Origin: Psychrobacter sp. DM4
GTDB taxonomy: Bacteria; Pseudomonadota; Gammaproteobacteria; Pseudomonadales; Moraxellaceae
NCBI RefSeq assembly: GCF_051307035.1
Contig: NZ_CP195536.1
Location: forward strand, 2,370,001-2,402,000
DNA length: 32,000 nucleotides
Reading direction: 5' to 3'
Positions 25,965 through 32,000 of this stretch are shown here, piece by piece. The position numbers and the translations under genes were made by a program. The notes beneath the pieces were generated by a model. The model was not told the origin of the DNA and searched no databases. It saw nothing but the letters and a program-made list of their open reading frames with translations. Each line of letters opens with the position of its first letter. The stretch's first letter is position 1.

Positions 25965-26285
25965 ATAAGAGATGTCATTGGGCAGTAGAAAATAGATCGC
26001 TATTAACGTATATCCTAGCAATCCACGTAAGCCAATAAGGATGCAACAAAGTACAAATGAGCACAAGATTATTTTTATAGCTTTATGTTATATCTTCAGT
26101 ATTAACACCACCTTAGAGACAATAACAGACGCTTGAGATAATTTTTTTTTGTATAAATAGTAGTAGGAGAATCCCAAAAACTCAGGCATAATTCGCCGTT
26201 ATCGAACTATTGTTCTCTATGGTCAGCTATCCATCGTTGACCTTGATTGTGTTTCTCAACTTTTATACTGTTTATAAGGATATTT

Positions 26286-27119
26286 ATGGTCACACGGTTT
26301 ACGCTCCCTTCTATCAAAGTGCTTACTCTACCTGTCGCACTCGCTGTCGTTACTGTATTTAGTGGCTGTGCGACGACGACAAACCCAGAAGCGCGATCTG
26401 CTTATGACAAGACGCAGCAAAACCTGAAGGCTCAATCTGTGGGTATTATCAGCGACGGTTGTGTACTACGAGTTGAGGTCGGTAAAGACGATATCATGTA
26501 CCAAAATTCTGACGCGCTTTCTGTCGCCATTGCCAATACGCTCAAGGAGAGACTCACGGAAAAAGGCGTTGTAGTCAATAACGTCTCATCCCCTTTTGTC
26601 TGCGGCGCACTGACACAAAAAGAGCTGTCACAGATGGATATCTTGGCGACTGAAGATGCCAAAGATGTGTTGAATACCAATTATCCTGTACTCAGCTCTA
26701 GCAATACCTTTGATGGCGTCACTAACCAAGCCTACCTAAACCTATATACTGCGCTAGTAAATGCCAAAAAAATTAGCGCGATCAATATGAAAACAGGCTC
26801 ATATACACCGCTCAACCTAGACGCTGCTAGCTTGAATACCATTCGCAAAACTGAAGGTGCGAATAAAGCCTTCGTCGTTTTGGGCGCTGCTAACAAACAG
26901 TCTTTTGGTCTAAAACTTACTGCGGCCTCTACGTCGCCGCTAGCGGGTGCGATGATCAATAGAGCGCCTGGCAAAGATTACTCCATCCACCTAGTCAATT
27001 TAGAAACCAATCAAATCGAGTGGAACAAATCAGGTAAGATCGATTCTGAAGTATTCAAGACGCCAGTGACGGGTACTATCGCCACCAAAAAAATGCTCGA
27101 CCCGCTGTACCCTGAATAA
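26286..27119 (+). CDS. Hypothetical lipoprotein
   Basis: AAGGA lies 5 nt before the ATG at 26286. The signal peptide carries a lipobox (LAVVTVFSGC-ATTTN). I recognise no motif in the mature part. Confidence 0.75.
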   Translation: MVTRFTLPSIKVLTLPVALAVVTVFSGCATTTNPEARSAYDKTQQNLKAQSVGIISDGCVLRVEVGKDDIMYQNSDALSVAIANTLKERLTEKGVVVNNVSSPFVCGALTQKELSQMDILATEDAKDVLNTNYPVLSSSNTFDGVTNQAYLNLYTALVNAKKISAINMKTGSYTPLNLDAASLNTIRKTEGANKAFVVLGAANKQSFGLKLTAASTSPLAGAMINRAPGKDYSIHLVNLETNQIEWNKSGKIDSEVFKTPVTGTIATKKMLDPLYPE

Positions 27120-27133
27120 GTCTATATCCTTAA

Positions 27134-27174
27134 TAAAAAAACCGCTCACAATTCATATTGCGAGCGGTTTTTTT
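27134..27174. terminator. Bidirectional Rho-independent terminator
   Basis: Composite stem ccgctc-a-caat [tcat] attg-c-gagcgg, flanked by an A8 run and a T7 run. It lies between the convergent lipoprotein and 3-TM genes. Confidence 0.8.
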
Positions 27175-27192
27175 ATCTGAGTGCCGCAACCC

Positions 27193-27633
27193 TTACACCA
27201 AGATAAGCGCCAATATCGCAAAAATGAAAAAGTAAGCAAAAACGCCGCCAATGGCATATAGCGATTTGATCTCTTTGCCGTCAGCGCGGCGTACTCGAGA
27301 CAGCGTATGACCGAGCTTGAGAATAGAGATAGTAAAAAAGTAAAATGCTAATAATAGCAGCACGATACTAATGGTAAAGATAGCCAGAGAAGATAGCGGG
27401 CCAAAAAAGGTCACTGTACCCGGAAACAAGGTTTCGCCCTTGATAATCAGTACCAATAAGACGACTGCAACGCCCGATGCTGACGCATGAAAAAACAGCA
27501 CATCATGAAGCGTCGCATCCTTTTTATAAAAACTCGTCTCAATCTCAAAAATATCACCCTTAGCAGGTCTTCTTGGGCGCGAGTCTCTAGCAAGGATCGA
27601 CTTATAACTGTTGATATTACTCACAGTAATCAA
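27193..27633 (-). CDS. Hypothetical membrane protein (about 50-aa soluble N-terminus plus 3 predicted TM segments)
   Basis: A 146-aa ORF with native-looking composition and hydrophobic stretches VAVVLLVLII, LAIFTISIVLLLLAFYFFTISIL and VFAYFFIFAILALILV. No family recognised. Confidence 0.65.
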   Translation of the reverse strand: MITVSNINSYKSILARDSRPRRPAKGDIFEIETSFYKKDATLHDVLFFHASASGVAVVLLVLIIKGETLFPGTVTFFGPLSSLAIFTISIVLLLLAFYFFTISILKLGHTLSRVRRADGKEIKSLYAIGGVFAYFFIFAILALILV

Positions 27634-27908
27634 AAATGCAAAAAACGTCAGGGCAATCCAAAAGACGACATATATATTTATGATAGCGATTACTCCAATA
27701 CAGAGGAAAGAATGACTTAACTATATCTAGGTATCGAACCTTATCGTTCTTGTTATATCGCTCACAGCACACTCGATACAGCGCAAATCGATACCATGGC
27801 GACATCCTTGTATCTTAGCAGTTTGTAGAGATGCCTTTGTAAAAAAGTGCTGTCATGGGTGGTGAGATTGTGTTGGTTTGGCTAGTAATATGGCAAGATT
27901 TAGTTATG

Positions 27909-27945
27909 AAAAAACCGCTACGGCGAGATGCGGTAACGGTTTTTT
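27909..27945 (-). terminator. Probable Rho-independent terminator downstream of the TerF-like gene
   Basis: Imperfect 10-bp stem ccgctacggc / gcggtaacgg (2 mismatches) with loop gagat, flanked by A6 and T6 runs. It lies about 30 nt past the stop at 27972. Confidence 0.6.
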
Positions 27946-27971
27946 GTACTAATCAAGATAAGAAGTTATTT

Positions 27972-29267
27972 TCATTTCTGTATCAACCCTATCTCACGTG
28001 CTTCTTTGAGCCAGCTTGGAAACTCTTCTAGCATATTCTCATATAAAGCTTCTTCGCTAACATCATCCAAATCGTCTAGTTCAAAAAAGCTGCAATTATC
28101 TACTAGTCGTCCCGTCATATCGTCTAAGTCTTTTAAGATGCCGTAACTACGACCACCCAAACCAACGAATTGCCAAAATATCGGTAGTTTCGCGGCTTCG
28201 GTCATGATCTTGGTAATGCCACGCGTATCTCGCACTCCGCCATCACTGATGAATAAAATATAAACGGGAACATTGAGTCCATCATTCTGATAAAAATCAG
28301 TGACCGCTTTCATTACTCCTGCTTCATTATTGGTACGTGCGCCTAACTGCCATTTACGCCAGCCACCCTGTACGGTATCGATAAAATCAGCGTAGTTATT
28401 GAGTCCGACCTCACCTAGATAAGAGCACTGCTCACCAAAAGCCCAACAGTCTAGCGCTTGGTCGTCATCGAAGCTCACTGCCAATGGCAATATGCGATTG
28501 ACCACTTCTTGCACGCGGCCTTTTTTGTACTGCCTGTTCATTGAGCCTGAAGCATCTAGCACCAACGCTACCTTTGCGGTTAATTGCTGCAATTGGCGTT
28601 TTTCTAGCGAAATGGTGGCTTTTTTGGCCAGATTGACCAGTTTTGGTGCTTTGTCTAGCATGACCTTCTCGAGCGACGGTTTTGCTTGCATTGGCGTGGC
28701 GGTCGTATCTGCTGCTTGTGGGCTACTCTCTTCTACATCGCCACCGAAATGCTGCACGATGGCGGCAAGTCCACCATTAAAGCCTTGCGCGACGTTGGAT
28801 ACTCGCCAAACGCCACTCTTACGGTAAAGCTGCATCAGCATACTGGCTTGCTGCTGAGCAAAGTCTGCTGCTTGATACGCTGCCTGCGCTTTTTGGGTTT
28901 GCTGCCAAATAACAATCTCTAACGATTGAATTTGATTAAGCGGCGTATCGGCTGATAATACAAAAAACAAGCTGTCTATATCAGTAGACAGTTTGGATAA
29001 GTTAACCTCAAACTCGGCTTGAATGCCTTTATTCGCCGTTGGCTGCGACTCGTAATGGGTGAGCTTGATTTGTCCGCATGATGAGGTTGGCTGATTATAA
29101 AACACCATGTAATCATCATTGATCAGTTTACCCGCTGCATCTAAGGCAAAGCAGCTGATATTCATCTCTATCGGGCTTTGGCGGGTAAATTTAAGCGTGA
29201 TGGGTGCGGTATCGTCAATAGTAAGGTTGCTTAAAGGTACGCGTTGTCCGACGGTGAGATGGTTCAT
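27972..29267 (-). CDS. TerF-like stress protein: N-terminal TerD domain fused to a C-terminal vWA (vWA-TerF-like) domain
   Basis: The N-terminal region fits the TerD pattern (ISCFALDAAGKLINDDYMVFYNQ..., FFVLSAD, GVWRVSNVAQGFNGGLAAIVQHFG). The C-terminal vWA has a MIDAS motif (VALVLDASGSM, then YILFISDGG). AAGGAA precedes the ATG at 29267. The track's start at 29297 is less likely. Confidence 0.85.
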   Translation of the reverse strand: MNHLTVGQRVPLSNLTIDDTAPITLKFTRQSPIEMNISCFALDAAGKLINDDYMVFYNQPTSSCGQIKLTHYESQPTANKGIQAEFEVNLSKLSTDIDSLFFVLSADTPLNQIQSLEIVIWQQTQKAQAAYQAADFAQQQASMLMQLYRKSGVWRVSNVAQGFNGGLAAIVQHFGGDVEESSPQAADTTATPMQAKPSLEKVMLDKAPKLVNLAKKATISLEKRQLQQLTAKVALVLDASGSMNRQYKKGRVQEVVNRILPLAVSFDDDQALDCWAFGEQCSYLGEVGLNNYADFIDTVQGGWRKWQLGARTNNEAGVMKAVTDFYQNDGLNVPVYILFISDGGVRDTRGITKIMTEAAKLPIFWQFVGLGGRSYGILKDLDDMTGRLVDNCSFFELDDLDDVSEEALYENMLEEFPSWLKEAREIGLIQK

Positions 29268-29332
29268 GGTGTTCCTTAATAGATCATAATTAATCACAAT
29301 TTTTTCTTGATCGATAACGCAGTTTTAGACAT

Positions 29333-29366
29333 TAAAAAGCCACTATAACTAAAAGCTATAGCGGCT
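29333..29366 (-). terminator. Rho-independent terminator ending the AT-rich two-gene operon
   Basis: On the reverse strand the stem is agccgctata / tatagtggct (1 mismatch) with a 9-nt loop, followed by tttttaa. It lies 42 nt past the stop of the 184-aa ORF and upstream of the TerF-like start. Confidence 0.7.
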
Positions 29367-29407
29367 GTGTATGTAGAACTGATATAATTTTACTAAGAAT
29401 AGCCTAG

Positions 29408-29962
29408 CTAACAAAATTTAGCTTGCTCAGCCTTATATTCTTTTCCCAGAGTTCTAATAAATTCTAAATCTTTTTCATAAGGAACTAACGATTTAAAACC
29501 TGCTTTTACAGCATTAGAGGTAATAAAATATAGTACTTTAATTATAACTTCAGACTTTAAGAAAGGAGTATAAGCTAGAAAAGCATCAAAAACTATATGA
29601 ACCAGTCGTACTTGAAATACTTTTACCTCTGGTAAAACATTGCTTTCTACTCTACTTTTCTTATTCTCAATAACTCTTAGCTTATCTATAAATCGTCGAA
29701 AATTAAACATTGTATGTTTACTATCCTTATAGTTATGGATAGTAACATTGTTAGTATTCAGAATTTCTCTCAGCTGAATATAATCAGACCTAGATAAACC
29801 ATTTCTCTCTTCGTATAGATATGTAATCATATCTCTGCGTAAATCACAAAATTCAAAAATATAACGATCGTGCTTCTGAATTCTTTTCAAGTAGACAGTT
29901 TCGAAAAGAGCAAATATTACAGCAATTACTAGCATTAGTATTAACATAATAATTTTCTCCAT
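29408..29962 (-). CDS. Hypothetical protein with N-terminal TM anchor (184 aa), AT-rich islet gene 2
   Basis: A 184-codon ORF in DNA of about 30% GC, where stop codons are frequent. It has an N-terminal hydrophobic helix (IIMLILMLVIAVIFALF) and then a Lys/Glu/Arg-rich, helical-looking domain. An alternative start at 29947 has GGAG 9 nt upstream. No family recognised. Confidence 0.65.
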   Translation of the reverse strand: MEKIIMLILMLVIAVIFALFETVYLKRIQKHDRYIFEFCDLRRDMITYLYEERNGLSRSDYIQLREILNTNNVTIHNYKDSKHTMFNFRRFIDKLRVIENKKSRVESNVLPEVKVFQVRLVHIVFDAFLAYTPFLKSEVIIKVLYFITSNAVKAGFKSLVPYEKDLEFIRTLGKEYKAEQAKFC

Positions 29963-29971
29963 TCTAACATT

Positions 29972-30319
29972 TCACTTAGCCTTCTTTTTACTGCTTTTTT
30001 TAGTAGTACTATCGTATGAAAACTTCTCATCAAGTATCGCGAGAAATCTGTCTCTATACTCACTATTATCTGCTGCTAATCGATCAATTTGTAATTGCCT
30101 ATTATCTAAATTGGACTTGTATAACTTGTGAAGATACCAGTGAGCACCAAAAAAAAATACTATAGCTACGAAATATTCTGGACCTACAGTTTCTAATAGA
30201 TTAGACAGAAAATTAGTCACCGCTTCAACCTTACCAGTGCTACCTTCTGCTAACTCGGTCTTTTGGGCTACTTCATTTGCAATATCAGTTTGTTCCACTC
30301 GTACCTCTGCATAAAACAA
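29972..30319 (-). CDS. Hypothetical single-TM protein with Lys-rich tail (108-115 aa), AT-rich islet gene 1
   Basis: The ORF ends 9 nt before gene 2. It has one central TM (YFVAIVFFFGAHWYL) and a C-terminal KKSSKKKAK. There is no in-frame ATG, so the start is either TTG at 30319 or, more plausibly, GTG at 30298, which has AGAGG 5 nt upstream. Confidence 0.55.
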   Translation of the reverse strand: MFYAEVRVEQTDIANEVAQKTELAEGSTGKVEAVTNFLSNLLETVGPEYFVAIVFFFGAHWYLHKLYKSNLDNRQLQIDRLAADNSEYRDRFLAILDEKFSYDSTTKKSSKKKAK

Positions 30320-30386
30320 ATCTCATATAAGCCTCTTGTAGATCAAGTATATAACAGTAAGCTAATTATAATTGTAACTAATATAT

Positions 30387-30414
30387 TTTTCTATTACGGT
30401 AGAGTAATAGAAAA
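30387..30414. promoter_or_regulatory. Perfect 11-bp-arm palindrome upstream of the islet operon (ttttctattac-ggtaga-gtaatagaaaa)
   Basis: Read directly. It lies about 70-115 nt upstream of the candidate starts of islet gene 1 and is a candidate operator. Confidence 0.4.
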
Positions 30415-30549
30415 TATGAATTTTCATAGCTTTCTAACGGAAAATAACCAGAGGTATTATAGAACTATAGTTCATTAATTAATAGTTGTTTTGCTAATAT
30501 TACCATATTATCGCTTGTTTCGTGCAAAACACTATGACTCTAAAGTAGC

Positions 30550-30567
30550 CTATAACAGCTATAACAG
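30550..30567. repeat. Tandem 9-mer ctataacag x2
   Basis: Read directly at the right-hand (GC-transition) edge of the AT-rich islet. Confidence 0.5.
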
Positions 30568-30705
30568 CGTAATACATCTAACTATATTCAATCTAGCGCG
30601 AGGGACAAGCTGAGTCATTAAAGAACACCGCCCCGTGCATCGCATATTTGCCCATTATTAAAGGACTCCGATGCTGAGGCCATGCTCTTTAAGCTTTTGC
30701 TTTAG

Positions 30706-32000
30706 TTACAACGCTTTTAACTCTTCCATCTGCGCCGTCATCGCGGTCAACTGCCCTTCTAGCTCAGCCAGTTTCGCCTTTTCAGCATCGACCACTTCCG
30801 CAGGTGCTTTACTGACAAAGCCTTCATTTCCTAGCTTACGCGCGATGCCCTCTAACTGACCTTTCAACTTATCATATGACTTACCTAAACGTGCTAGCTC
30901 AGCCGTTGGATCGATCAGACCTTTCATCGGTACGAGTACACGTAGCTGACCAACCATACTTGATGATGATAGTGGAATCTTTTGATCAGAGCCGTCACCA
31001 CTATTTATAATCTCTAAGCTCTCGACTTTGGCAAGCGCTTTGAACTGGTTTTTGATACGGGATAGACGCGCATCTTCATCGCTAGAGATATTTTGTAGTA
31101 GCACTGGCAGACGTACGGCATTGCCTAGCTTCATCTCACCACGGATGTTACGGACGCTGGCGATCAGCTCTTGTAGCCATGCCATATCCGACTCGATTTG
31201 CTCGCTGATTTGGGCATTATCGGTTTGTGGGTAGTCCGCGATGACGATGCTTTCGGTGTTTTTGCGACCTAATAGTGGCGCGATGGTCTGCCAGATTTGC
31301 TCAGTCAGATACGGCATGATTGGATGGGTGAAGCGCAACGCGGTCTCAAGCACATGCAAGAGGACATAGCGGATTTGTGCTTTGCGCTCGTCCGTCACCG
31401 AGTCATCATTGAGGCTGGCTTTGGCAAGCTCAACGTACCAATCACAATACTCGTTCCAGATGAACTCATAGATGTCTTGGCTGACCATATCGAGGCGATA
31501 CTGGGTAAAATGCTGATGGATGTCTTTGATGCTTGAGTTTAGGCGACTCATAATCCATTTTTCTGGTAATTCCCACACCTCAGGATTAGGCGCTTGGTCG
31601 ATAGGTTTGGCAGTACCTTCGCTATCGACACAGTTCATCAGTACAAAACGGCTGGCGTTCCAGATTTTATTACAGAAGTTACGATAGCCCTCGACACGCT
31701 TTAGGTCAAAGTTGATATCGCGACCCGTACTGGCAAGCGAGGTAAAGGTAAAGCGTAGCGCATCGGTACCAAAGGCTGGAATACCTTCTGGGAACTCTTT
31801 ACGCGTTTGCTTTTCGATTTTGGCCGCGTCTTTCGGGTTCATCATATTGCTGGTGCGTTTTTCTACCAGCGCTTCAAGCTCAATACCATCGATCAAGTCA
31901 ATCGGATCTAAAACGTTGCCTTTCGATTTTGACATTTTTTGACCATTGCCATCACGCACTAGACCATGCACATAAACGGTTTTAAACGGTACTTGCGGCG
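30706..32000 (-). CDS. valS: Valyl-tRNA synthetase, C-terminal part (N-terminus off the right edge)
   Basis: The frame stays open to the window end (…PFKTVYVHGLVRDGNGQKMSKSKGN with the class I KMSKS motif). The anticodon-binding region and the C-terminal coiled coil (AEVVDAEKAKLAELEGQLTAMTAQMEELKAL) are typical of ValRS. Confidence 0.95.
   Translation of the reverse strand, partial: PQVPFKTVYVHGLVRDGNGQKMSKSKGNVLDPIDLIDGIELEALVEKRTSNMMNPKDAAKIEKQTRKEFPEGIPAFGTDALRFTFTSLASTGRDINFDLKRVEGYRNFCNKIWNASRFVLMNCVDSEGTAKPIDQAPNPEVWELPEKWIMSRLNSSIKDIHQHFTQYRLDMVSQDIYEFIWNEYCDWYVELAKASLNDDSVTDERKAQIRYVLLHVLETALRFTHPIMPYLTEQIWQTIAPLLGRKNTESIVIADYPQTDNAQISEQIESDMAWLQELIASVRNIRGEMKLGNAVRLPVLLQNISSDEDARLSRIKNQFKALAKVESLEIINSGDGSDQKIPLSSSSMVGQLRVLVPMKGLIDPTAELARLGKSYDKLKGQLEGIARKLGNEGFVSKAPAEVVDAEKAKLAELEGQLTAMTAQMEELKAL

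Follow-up and report, generated by a model that had tools for sequence, protein, structure and literature searches.

A two-gene membrane-protein cassette in the hypervariable valS-TerF slot of Psychrobacter as a candidate anti-phage module

The present study concerns a 32,000-nucleotide stretch of Psychrobacter sp. DM4 (contig NZ_CP195536.1, forward-strand positions 2,370,001 to 2,402,000), hereafter the window, and specifically an AT-rich islet at window positions 29370-30600. The islet lies between valS and a TerF-like gene and carries two small genes for membrane proteins, called A and B here. An initial annotation, made from the sequence alone, had read it as horizontally acquired cargo dropped at the 3′ end of an essential gene. 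Our comparison with related genomes reveals that the islet is the present cargo of a permanently occupied, hypervariable slot between the core genes valS and TerF-like, and that the A-B pair is very probably hotspot cargo acquired horizontally. Other loci are cited by number (L001 and so forth) where they need to be told apart.

Results

An AT-rich cassette between valS and the TerF-like gene

The GC content of the islet is 0.305, as against 0.457 for the remainder of the window. It is the lowest-GC 1231-bp stretch in the 32 kb and lies about 7 standard deviations (sd) under windows of the same size outside it (mean 0.456, sd 0.022, minimum 0.403). In a sliding profile, both flanks run at 0.44 to 0.52, the value falls to 0.28 to 0.31 across about 29300-30600, and it climbs back to 0.45 to 0.48 from about 30500-30600 upward. 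The whole interval from the valS stop to TerF (29298-30705) has a GC content of 0.318. GC at third codon positions is likewise low, at 0.275 in A and 0.200 in B versus 0.519 in valS and 0.465 in the TerF-like gene. Thus, the abrupt drop noticed in the initial annotation is borne out against the rest of the window.

Gene A (ORF1, 29972-30319, minus strand) encodes 115 amino acids (aa), or 108 if translation starts at the GTG at 30298, which it may. Gene B (ORF2, 29408-29962, minus strand) encodes 184 aa, and the ATG at 29947 (179 aa) is its more likely start, being preceded at 9 nt by a GGAG and chosen as the start codon in the public annotation. The two open reading frames (ORFs) are co-directional and 9 nt apart, as first described. 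The predicted product of A has an acidic N terminus (9 D/E versus 3 K/R) followed by one transmembrane (TM) segment, a coiled-coil-like (heptad-like) segment and a basic tail, and that of B has an N-terminal TM anchor and a soluble, helical domain of about 155 aa. These product features agree with the earlier description.

The operon has a predicted intrinsic terminator of its own (29338-29366, minus strand), with a 13-bp stem, a 3-nt loop and a T tail. It folds at −22.7 kcal/mol (z = −3.6), a value matched by none of 200 shuffles, in keeping with the earlier call. Upstream of A, the initial annotation had pointed to one unusually long region. This region of 386 nt is not a single unit, being composed of about 105 nt of GC-normal sequence downstream of valS and an AT-rich leader of about 280 nt (30320-30600, minus strand). 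The leader holds a predicted sigma-70-like promoter, TAGAAA-17-TATAAT, with the −35 box at 30393-30388 and the −10 box at 30370-30365, and the perfect 11-bp-arm palindrome reported earlier (30387-30397 / 30404-30414), which overlaps the predicted −35 box. The leader accompanies the pair, at 90 to 99% identity in L001 and L098, 76% in L009 and 67% in L010. The −10 box is retained in L009 and nearly retained in L010. A role of the palindrome as a conserved operator was rejected, as it is not conserved in L009 or L010, which are diverged copies of the cassette. Taken together, leader, putative promoter and terminator make the islet a self-contained cassette.

The cargo proper extends over about 29279-30600. 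On the TerF side, the variable region ends 11 nt short of the start codon of TerF, at about 29278, and the spacer between this border and the terminator (29279-29337) is cargo-specific and not alignable with L009. On the valS side, the GC-normal stretch of about 105 nt just 3′ of valS (30601-30705, minus strand) is outside the AT-rich cargo. At least 88 nt of it past the valS stop are kept in 13 loci, it is 94 to 98% identical in L001 and L098, and it contains an imperfect inverted repeat (30618-30632 / 30678-30692).

The left core flank is the 3′ part of valS, encoding valyl-tRNA synthetase (30706-32000, minus strand). Its ORF ends at 30706, and the KMSKS-containing frame reads through to the window edge, beyond which the gene continues. 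The valS protein is 84 to 97% identical across all Psychrobacter loci. The right core flank is the TerF-like gene (27972-29267, minus strand), whose product carries TerD and vWA-TerF-like domains (Pfam, 6.9e-28 and 3.6e-75, respectively). Its start is most likely the ATG at 29267 rather than the GTG at 29297. The gene adjoins the slot in about 70 Psychrobacter loci at 75 to 89% identity. No tRNA was found in the window by a tRNA scan, no Rfam match in the islet, and no integrase, transposase or phage domain in the six adjacent ORFs, which is consistent with the earlier remark that none of the usual mobility genes or tRNA targets is adjacent.

The valS-TerF interval is a permanently occupied slot

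With the TerF-like protein as anchor, about 70 Psychrobacter loci were drawn from species-representative genomes, and synteny was counted in the 54 whose contig spans both flanks. In every one of these, valS and TerF are syntenic. The gap between them measures 1.0 to 5.8 kb, has a GC content of 0.25 to 0.39 and is always occupied; no empty valS-TerF site was found among these 54 species representatives. Its content varies by species. The gap proteins of at least 90 aa (n = 113) fall into 60 clusters, 39 of them singletons, and neither A nor B is present in the gap in any of the 54. The edges are sharp, at the stop codon of valS and the ribosome-binding site of TerF. In most loci, homology between species is lost at the valS stop or no more than a few bases from it (in 13 loci it extends about 90 to 100 nt past it), and it resumes exactly 11 nt upstream of the TerF ATG at 29267 in 40 of 72 loci. 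The image of cargo dropped at the valS 3′ end therefore needs revision, since the junction is never empty and cargo is swapped or stacked there.

Much of the alternative cargo is recognizable as defence genes. Using PADLOC-DB v2.0.0 with a match threshold of E < 1e-5, we found a PADLOC-recognised defence gene in at least 20 of the 54 sister loci, as a plain count of loci. Cargo found in single loci comprises an RT_UG5-nitrilase DRT (1e-205, L044), two ThsB proteins with TIR and SLOG partners (3e-99 and 1e-66, L075), PDC-M03A with HIRAN and an exonuclease (6e-92, L064), AriA/AriB of PARIS (3e-29 for AriA, L046), a ThsA-like SIR2 (1e-28, L035) and a Ppl-like ATPase (1e-20, L060). Others recur: PDC-S33 (RelA/SpoT; 2e-82), NsnA with a HEPN partner (7e-76) and HEC-09 (NYN; 2e-24) in three species each, and the PD-T4-6 kinase (1e-31) in four. 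Pfam adds GmrSD, TIR-DUF3298, TIR, SLOG, HEPN, HATPase_c_3, SecB-like, PIN, PIN_12, KAP NTPase, AAA_15/21 and T5orf172 domains. Thus, the valS-TerF slot behaves as a small core defence hotspot. Besides these, the slot holds cluster C1 (e.g., L021:3885-5963), proteins of 520 to 690 aa with a weak pentapeptide-repeat match, a hydrophobic C-terminal region and no PADLOC match.

Contigs end in or just upstream of the slot in about 14 of about 70 assemblies (including L017, L018, L031, L032, L034, L041, L043, L045, L049, L051, L059, L063, L071 and L092), which points to short-read assemblies failing at this place on repeats or extreme AT content. A second variable slot lies beyond TerF, where the stretch from the TerF end to a conserved DUF454 gene is 141 to 5351 bp long in about 65 loci. 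In the window it spans 26067-27971 and contains a 146-aa membrane ORF (27193-27633; GC about 0.38 to 0.41) found in only 9 loci and a 290-aa ORF (26247-27119) found in 6. Since the distance on the DUF454 side varies too, the TerF-like gene is a core gene flanked on both sides by variable regions.

The A-B pair has a history of its own

L001 and L002 are metagenomic Psychrobacter contigs with the same arrangement as the window. Compared with them, ORF1 is 96.6% and ORF2 98.9% identical (dS about 0.05), whereas the flanks reach only 80.6% (TerF) and 90% (valS). With L009, the pair shares 81 to 88% and the flanks 91 to 94%. Because the identities of pair and flanks are discordant, the history of the cassette is decoupled from that of its surroundings. 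In L009 and L010, valS and the pair are separated by an additional gene, NYN/HEC-09, and in L010 a thioredoxin-like gene lies downstream of the pair in place of TerF. Furthermore, the GC content of the module is 6 to 24 points under that of its surroundings in 14 of 15 unrelated contexts. The earlier claim of horizontal acquisition is thus strongly supported: the pair is missing from the slot of the sister species, disagrees with its flanks and is AT-skewed nearly everywhere. As judged from these comparisons, the module is shown to be mobile among lineages.

A and B form a conserved two-gene module

Word-indexed searches returned only 3 to 4 clusters. In contrast, a profile search of 1.84 billion representatives returned 247 relatives of B, 200 of them below 1e-10 and nearly all 170 to 195 aa long, of which 58 clusters were recovered with source data. 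The sources are mostly metagenomic singletons. The named ones are Psychrobacter, Marinospirillum, a Rickettsiales metagenome-assembled genome (MAG) and a Blastocatellia MAG, and all named relatives are annotated 'hypothetical'. The closest relatives outside Psychrobacter (L016, GC 0.51; P0004/P0008) are 33 to 34% identical and lie on GC-rich contigs, one labelled Blastocatellia. Because of these relatives in GC-rich contigs, the B family appears to cross phyla, or at least very different genome compositions.

Scanned with a local hidden Markov model (HMM) of ORF1, 19 of 20 loci have an A homolog directly 5′ of B, and often the stop codon of A overlaps the start codon of B; in the one remaining locus, L016, the sequence 5′ of B is only 247 nt long. 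The impression that both products were unrecognisable orphans thus did not last, and the comparisons of homology and gene order show A and B to be a conserved, linked two-gene module well beyond Psychrobacter.

The conserved core of B includes the N-terminal TM helix, a KHD motif (D32 invariant), C39, R42/R43 and TIH.Y, followed towards the C terminus by F86-N87 (FN.R.F) and F128...YTPF.KSE, in which T132 and P133 are invariant. Members of the A family are 77 to 115 aa long and share a TM helix (FFF.AH), a strongly conserved juxtamembrane coiled coil (RL.DRQ.EIDRLA.DN.EYR..FL) and a K/R-rich tail; the net charge of the C-terminal part is +1 to +14 across 14 homologs. The acidic N-terminal extension of 30 to 40 aa is Psychrobacter-specific. 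Because the charges follow the positive-inside rule in both families, an N-out/C-in topology with the bulk of both proteins in the cytoplasm is predicted. An AlphaFold2 (AF2) model of B built on a 55-sequence alignment is all-alpha (pLDDT 90.7, pTM 0.76; an alignment of 4 sequences gave a pLDDT of 65), with a long helix (residues 2-51) that continues the TM segment and six further helices.

AT-rich DNA gives many false ORFs, and neither protein has a match in the family libraries. The pair might therefore be suspected to be spurious ORFs or decaying pseudogenes. The dN/dS ratio is 0.11 to 0.21 for both genes at dS 0.45 to 1.3 (0.11 to 0.17 for B), a pattern that shows A and B to be under purifying selection. 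Together with the many B relatives of similar length, the recurrent A partner and the confident structural model, this refutes the suspicion, which we regard as scarcely credible.

No known relative emerged from the searches. Pfam, NCBIfam, PADLOC and PHROGs gave no match for A or B (in PADLOC, 0 at E ≤ 1 for each), and 55 members of the B family scanned singly with Pfam showed no recurrent weak family. In sequence-profile searches of the PDB, B had no match and the matches of A were coiled-coil noise. With Foldseek, the model of B had no neighbour in PDB or BFVD below E = 0.2. The initial annotation had recognised no motif in either product, and the family, PADLOC and structure searches agree with it. 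A reading of the KHD and RR motifs of B as an HD-domain or HEPN signature was rejected by eye, the spacing being unfit and no HMM supporting it.

The module recurs at defence, toxin-antitoxin and prophage positions

Elsewhere, the pair lies 1.7 kb from a full GmrSD gene (L099), beside fragments of DUF1016/YhcG nuclease genes (L095 and L106), and among transposases, an HSDR_N protein and a group II intron (L093). In L105 it stands beside a PIN/YoeB/ParE array and a DUF4145 gene. In prophage-like DNA it abuts a prophage integrase and an S24 repressor (L107), and it directly follows the tape-measure gene on a 49-kb viral contig (L097); in L094 it lies near a P4 cII-like gene. Thus, the module is shown to recur at defence-type, toxin-antitoxin-type and prophage-moron positions. 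The stretch L105:1-5738 contains, in tandem and all on the same strand, at least 7 small cassettes that are toxin-antitoxin-like (PIN, YoeB or ParE), a layout that recalls a chromosomal integron array. In three unrelated contexts the pair is beside aminoacyl-tRNA synthetase genes, namely aspS (L095), cysS/glnS (L106) and, in the window, valS. This adjacency may be a coincidence or a preference for the 3′ ends of essential genes.

Some of these positions would suit a selfish toxin-antitoxin (TA), or addiction, module in which A is a membrane-depolarising toxin and B its membrane-anchored antidote, with no direct anti-phage role; such a module would be maintained in hotspots by post-segregational or stabilising effects. 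The operon is compact and coupled, stop and start codons overlapping in several loci; the L105 copy sits inside a dense array of PIN, YoeB and ParE genes; A has features of small membrane toxins or holins; and the valS-TerF slot also holds PIN, HipA-like and SecB-like cargo. As a type II-like TA system, the two-gene architecture alone is compatible, whereas no recognisable toxin or antitoxin domain is present and neither protein matches a known toxin or antitoxin family. Besides, B is larger and more conserved than typical antidotes of small membrane toxins. We regard a purely selfish TA module as unlikely; moreover, it overlaps with the anti-phage explanation, as many such island TA modules act in phage defence.

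The prophage positions raise a further alternative, that the pair is a remnant of prophage lysis timing (a holin with an antiholin or regulator) or a lysogenic-conversion moron without a defence role. A is holin-like, being 77 to 115 aa long with one hydrophobic TM segment and a basic, charged C terminus, and two instances (L097 and L107) are in prophage-like DNA. However, it matches no holin family, and no endolysin, lysin or spanin gene was identified beside the pair in any context examined. The L097 pair follows a tape-measure gene rather than a lysis module, most instances are chromosomal without phage genes, and there is no PHROG match. As a moron, the cassette is an autonomous unit of deviant GC content (0.31 versus 0.46) with a strong terminator and a putative promoter; the window locus itself is a chromosomal slot between core genes, with no phage domain in the six neighbouring ORFs scanned, and only the distant family members in L097 and L107 have a phage or prophage setting. 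A lysis or non-defence moron origin is, in our estimate, very improbable.

Repeats of the valS 3′ end separate cassettes

Counted with a common valS-end probe across 60 loci, two to four decayed direct copies of the last 60 to 150 nt of valS separate cassettes in 16 of the 60 (L010, L019, L022, L025, L027, L028, L030, L033, L039, L047, L053, L058, L060, L065, L076 and L085). In L027, for instance, the order is valS, a small membrane protein, a valS remnant (valS′), NYN, valS′, an antiporter, valS′, a 399-aa protein and TerF. The recurrent valS-side cassettes are a 108- to 118-aa membrane protein, NYN/HEC-09 and a 488-aa Na+/H+ antiporter. These three (C3, NYN/C6 and C2) are always valS-proximal with a remnant after each, and the hypervariable cargo adjoins TerF. 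In L033 and L047 the junction lies about 10 nt inside valS. The NYN gene (224 to 240 aa; HEC-09, 2e-24) is inserted at the valS 3′ end in several lineages (L009:334-1056, L010:335-1057, L019:4697-5371, L027:1606-2280, L039:4490-5164), twice directly upstream of A-B.

In L010, the order valS′-leader-ORF1-ORF2 is colinear with valS-leader-ORF1-ORF2 of the window. Therefore, NYN was inserted into a window-like arrangement, duplicating about 135 nt of valS. The L010 remnant is 86% identical to its own valS versus 58 to 75% to the post-NYN remnants of other genomes, and is therefore a displaced copy of the resident gene. The converse idea, that valS remnants travel with the cassettes, is not supported, as remnants are no closer to remnants of the same cassette than to the resident valS.

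The window islet is the sole, TerF-proximal cargo of its slot, and no second copy of the valS 3′ end occurs in window positions 1-30700. Neither an integrase domain in the adjacent ORFs scanned nor att repeats from the 3′ end of the target gene, the marks of a site-specific genomic island, are seen in the window. No integrase was found among 62 cargo cluster representatives scanned, and none was called in the contexts. Two routes of capture may be envisaged. On the valS side, each insertion would duplicate the last 60 to 150 nt of valS, either by Campbell-type insertion through short valS homology or by a recombinase acting in trans. On the TerF side, where the A-B pair sits, whole cassettes could be replaced by homologous recombination in the flanks.

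Discussion

The initial annotation had guessed that the pair was a phage-exclusion, abortive-infection or toxin/immunity module. The genomic context strongly supports this guess, through the defence genes in at least 20 of 54 loci and the moron and TA positions; homology, motif and structure do not. Judging by such guilt by association, we give a probability of about 0.5 to the reading that A-B excludes phages, i.e., is an anti-phage system.

Several observations weigh against this reading. There is no homology, motif or fold link to a characterised defence, toxin, holin or exclusion protein. A tblastn search for the module in reference phages and plasmids gave no match, and a single contig among 2.9 million viral ones carries it, with none added by further scans. 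Promoter-like sites are not enriched (10 found versus 6.7 ± 2.4 in shuffles), and A is frameshifted in two copies (L102 and L105). In the slot itself, the commonest cargo is cluster C1, which occurs in 12 species and is uncharacterised, and other cargo is not defensive, namely the Na+/H+ antiporter (6 species), a fatty-acid hydroxylase (2 species) and an IS630 transposase.

The antiporter and the hydroxylase also lend some colour to another explanation, in which the pair is niche-adaptive membrane cargo (envelope, osmotic or cold-stress signalling, PspB/PspC-like) riding a recombination-prone slot. Both proteins are membrane-anchored with cytoplasmic helical domains, and A, with its TM segment and cytoplasmic coiled coil, presumably resembles PspB. 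However, the Pfam PspB and PspC models give no match at E ≤ 1. The family is rare and patchy, consisting mostly of singleton clusters over distant taxa, and its AT skew against nearly every host and its prophage moron positions fit conflict systems better. An adaptive role of this kind therefore seems clearly improbable.

If A-B is an anti-phage system, its mode of action could be envisaged as follows. A and B would be single-pass inner-membrane proteins with their bulk in the cytoplasm, forming a membrane complex via their TM helices and the conserved, charged juxtamembrane helices. The part of sensor or gatekeeper would fall to B, whose all-alpha domain is new, and A, with its small size, single TM segment, coiled coil and polybasic tail, would be a holin-like membrane effector. 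On infection, A would collapse membrane integrity, resulting in abortive infection. A close alternative, for which HK97 gp15 is the precedent, is a complex that stops the incoming phage genome at the inner membrane. Of the two, we favour the mechanism in which B gates A, though with low confidence.

A broader proposal joins the two lines of this study. A-B could be the founding example of an unrecognised, widely but sparsely spread two-gene anti-phage system, made of two single-pass inner-membrane proteins that act on the cytoplasmic side of the membrane, one of them with a new all-alpha fold, and, jointly with this, the slot could exemplify an integrase-independent, Campbell-type capture of cassettes via the valS 3′ end of about 100 nt, building integron-like arrays in the naturally transformable Moraxellaceae. 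As a joint claim we hold this only tentatively, and below even odds.

Should A-B prove protective against phage, the defence repertoire would gain both a membrane-based mechanism and a fold that are new. As a compact cassette of about 1.3 kb with its native signals, it is a ready experimental candidate, and at least 37% of the alternative cargoes of its slot are recognised phage-defence systems. Defence-hotspot cargo is already known as a kind. We found no publication describing a Psychrobacter or valS hotspot, nor, in the libraries and papers searched, descriptions of the A and B families, the B fold or cassette arrays with valS repeats.

Core defence hotspots have been described in Pseudomonas aeruginosa, where cDHS1 and cDHS2 have core flanks, lower GC content and discordant phylogeny, and 29 to 47% of sites are without a mobility gene (PMC10250203). 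E. coli hotspot #37 is near-always occupied (PMC10121019). Like these, the valS-TerF slot is core-flanked, occupied, low in GC content, hypervariable and defence-rich, with many uncharacterised genes and with cargo whose history is discordant with the flanks. In contrast to them, it is small (1 to 6 kb and 1 to 5 genes, versus medians of 6 to 26 kb), and the gene at its border is that of an aminoacyl-tRNA synthetase, not one for a tRNA or tmRNA. The survey covered the species of a genus and not strains of one species, and part of the growth of the slot is marked by tandem valS 3′-end duplications. Whether core defence hotspots exist outside Pseudomonas has been asked (PMC10250203). Our study suggests one in a cold-adapted genus, together with dozens of other uncharacterised candidates, e.g., C1.

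A close likeness for the cassette itself is HK97 gp15, a small inner-membrane exclusion protein encoded by a moron beside the tape-measure gene; this moron has a promoter and a terminator to itself and deviates in base composition (PMC3594210). Likened by description, A-B is also small, predicted to be in the inner membrane, and an autonomous unit of deviant GC content, and its L097 copy is beside a tape-measure gene as well. Unlike A-B, gp15 is a single YebO-like protein confined to Enterobacteriaceae, whereas A-B has two genes and a 150-aa cytoplasmic domain and is mostly chromosomal. SNIPE is a constitutively membrane-localised nuclease that cleaves phage DNA during injection (PMC13190303). 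Similarly, action at the membrane during genome entry is plausible for the cytoplasm-facing A and B, although neither has a detectable nuclease domain or enzyme motif. With holins, A shares its length, single TM segment and highly charged, basic cytoplasmic C terminus; it differs from them in lacking a Pfam or PHROG holin match and a nearby endolysin and in having a conserved coiled-coil motif and an obligatory partner, B.

Tandem accretion at the 3′ ends of target genes and integron arrays are characterised by head-to-tail cassettes, direct repeats of the target 3′ end and restoration of a functional gene proximally. In contrast to these, no integrase or recombinase was identified in the slot or in the neighbouring window genes scanned, the repeats consist of 60 to 150 nt of coding sequence, the L010 remnant, the clearest case, derives from the resident valS, and the window islet carries no remnant. 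Nevertheless, cassettes of the slot are likewise stacked head-to-tail between valS 3′-end repeats with an intact valS proximal, and such arrays hint at a capture route that does without a dedicated recombinase.

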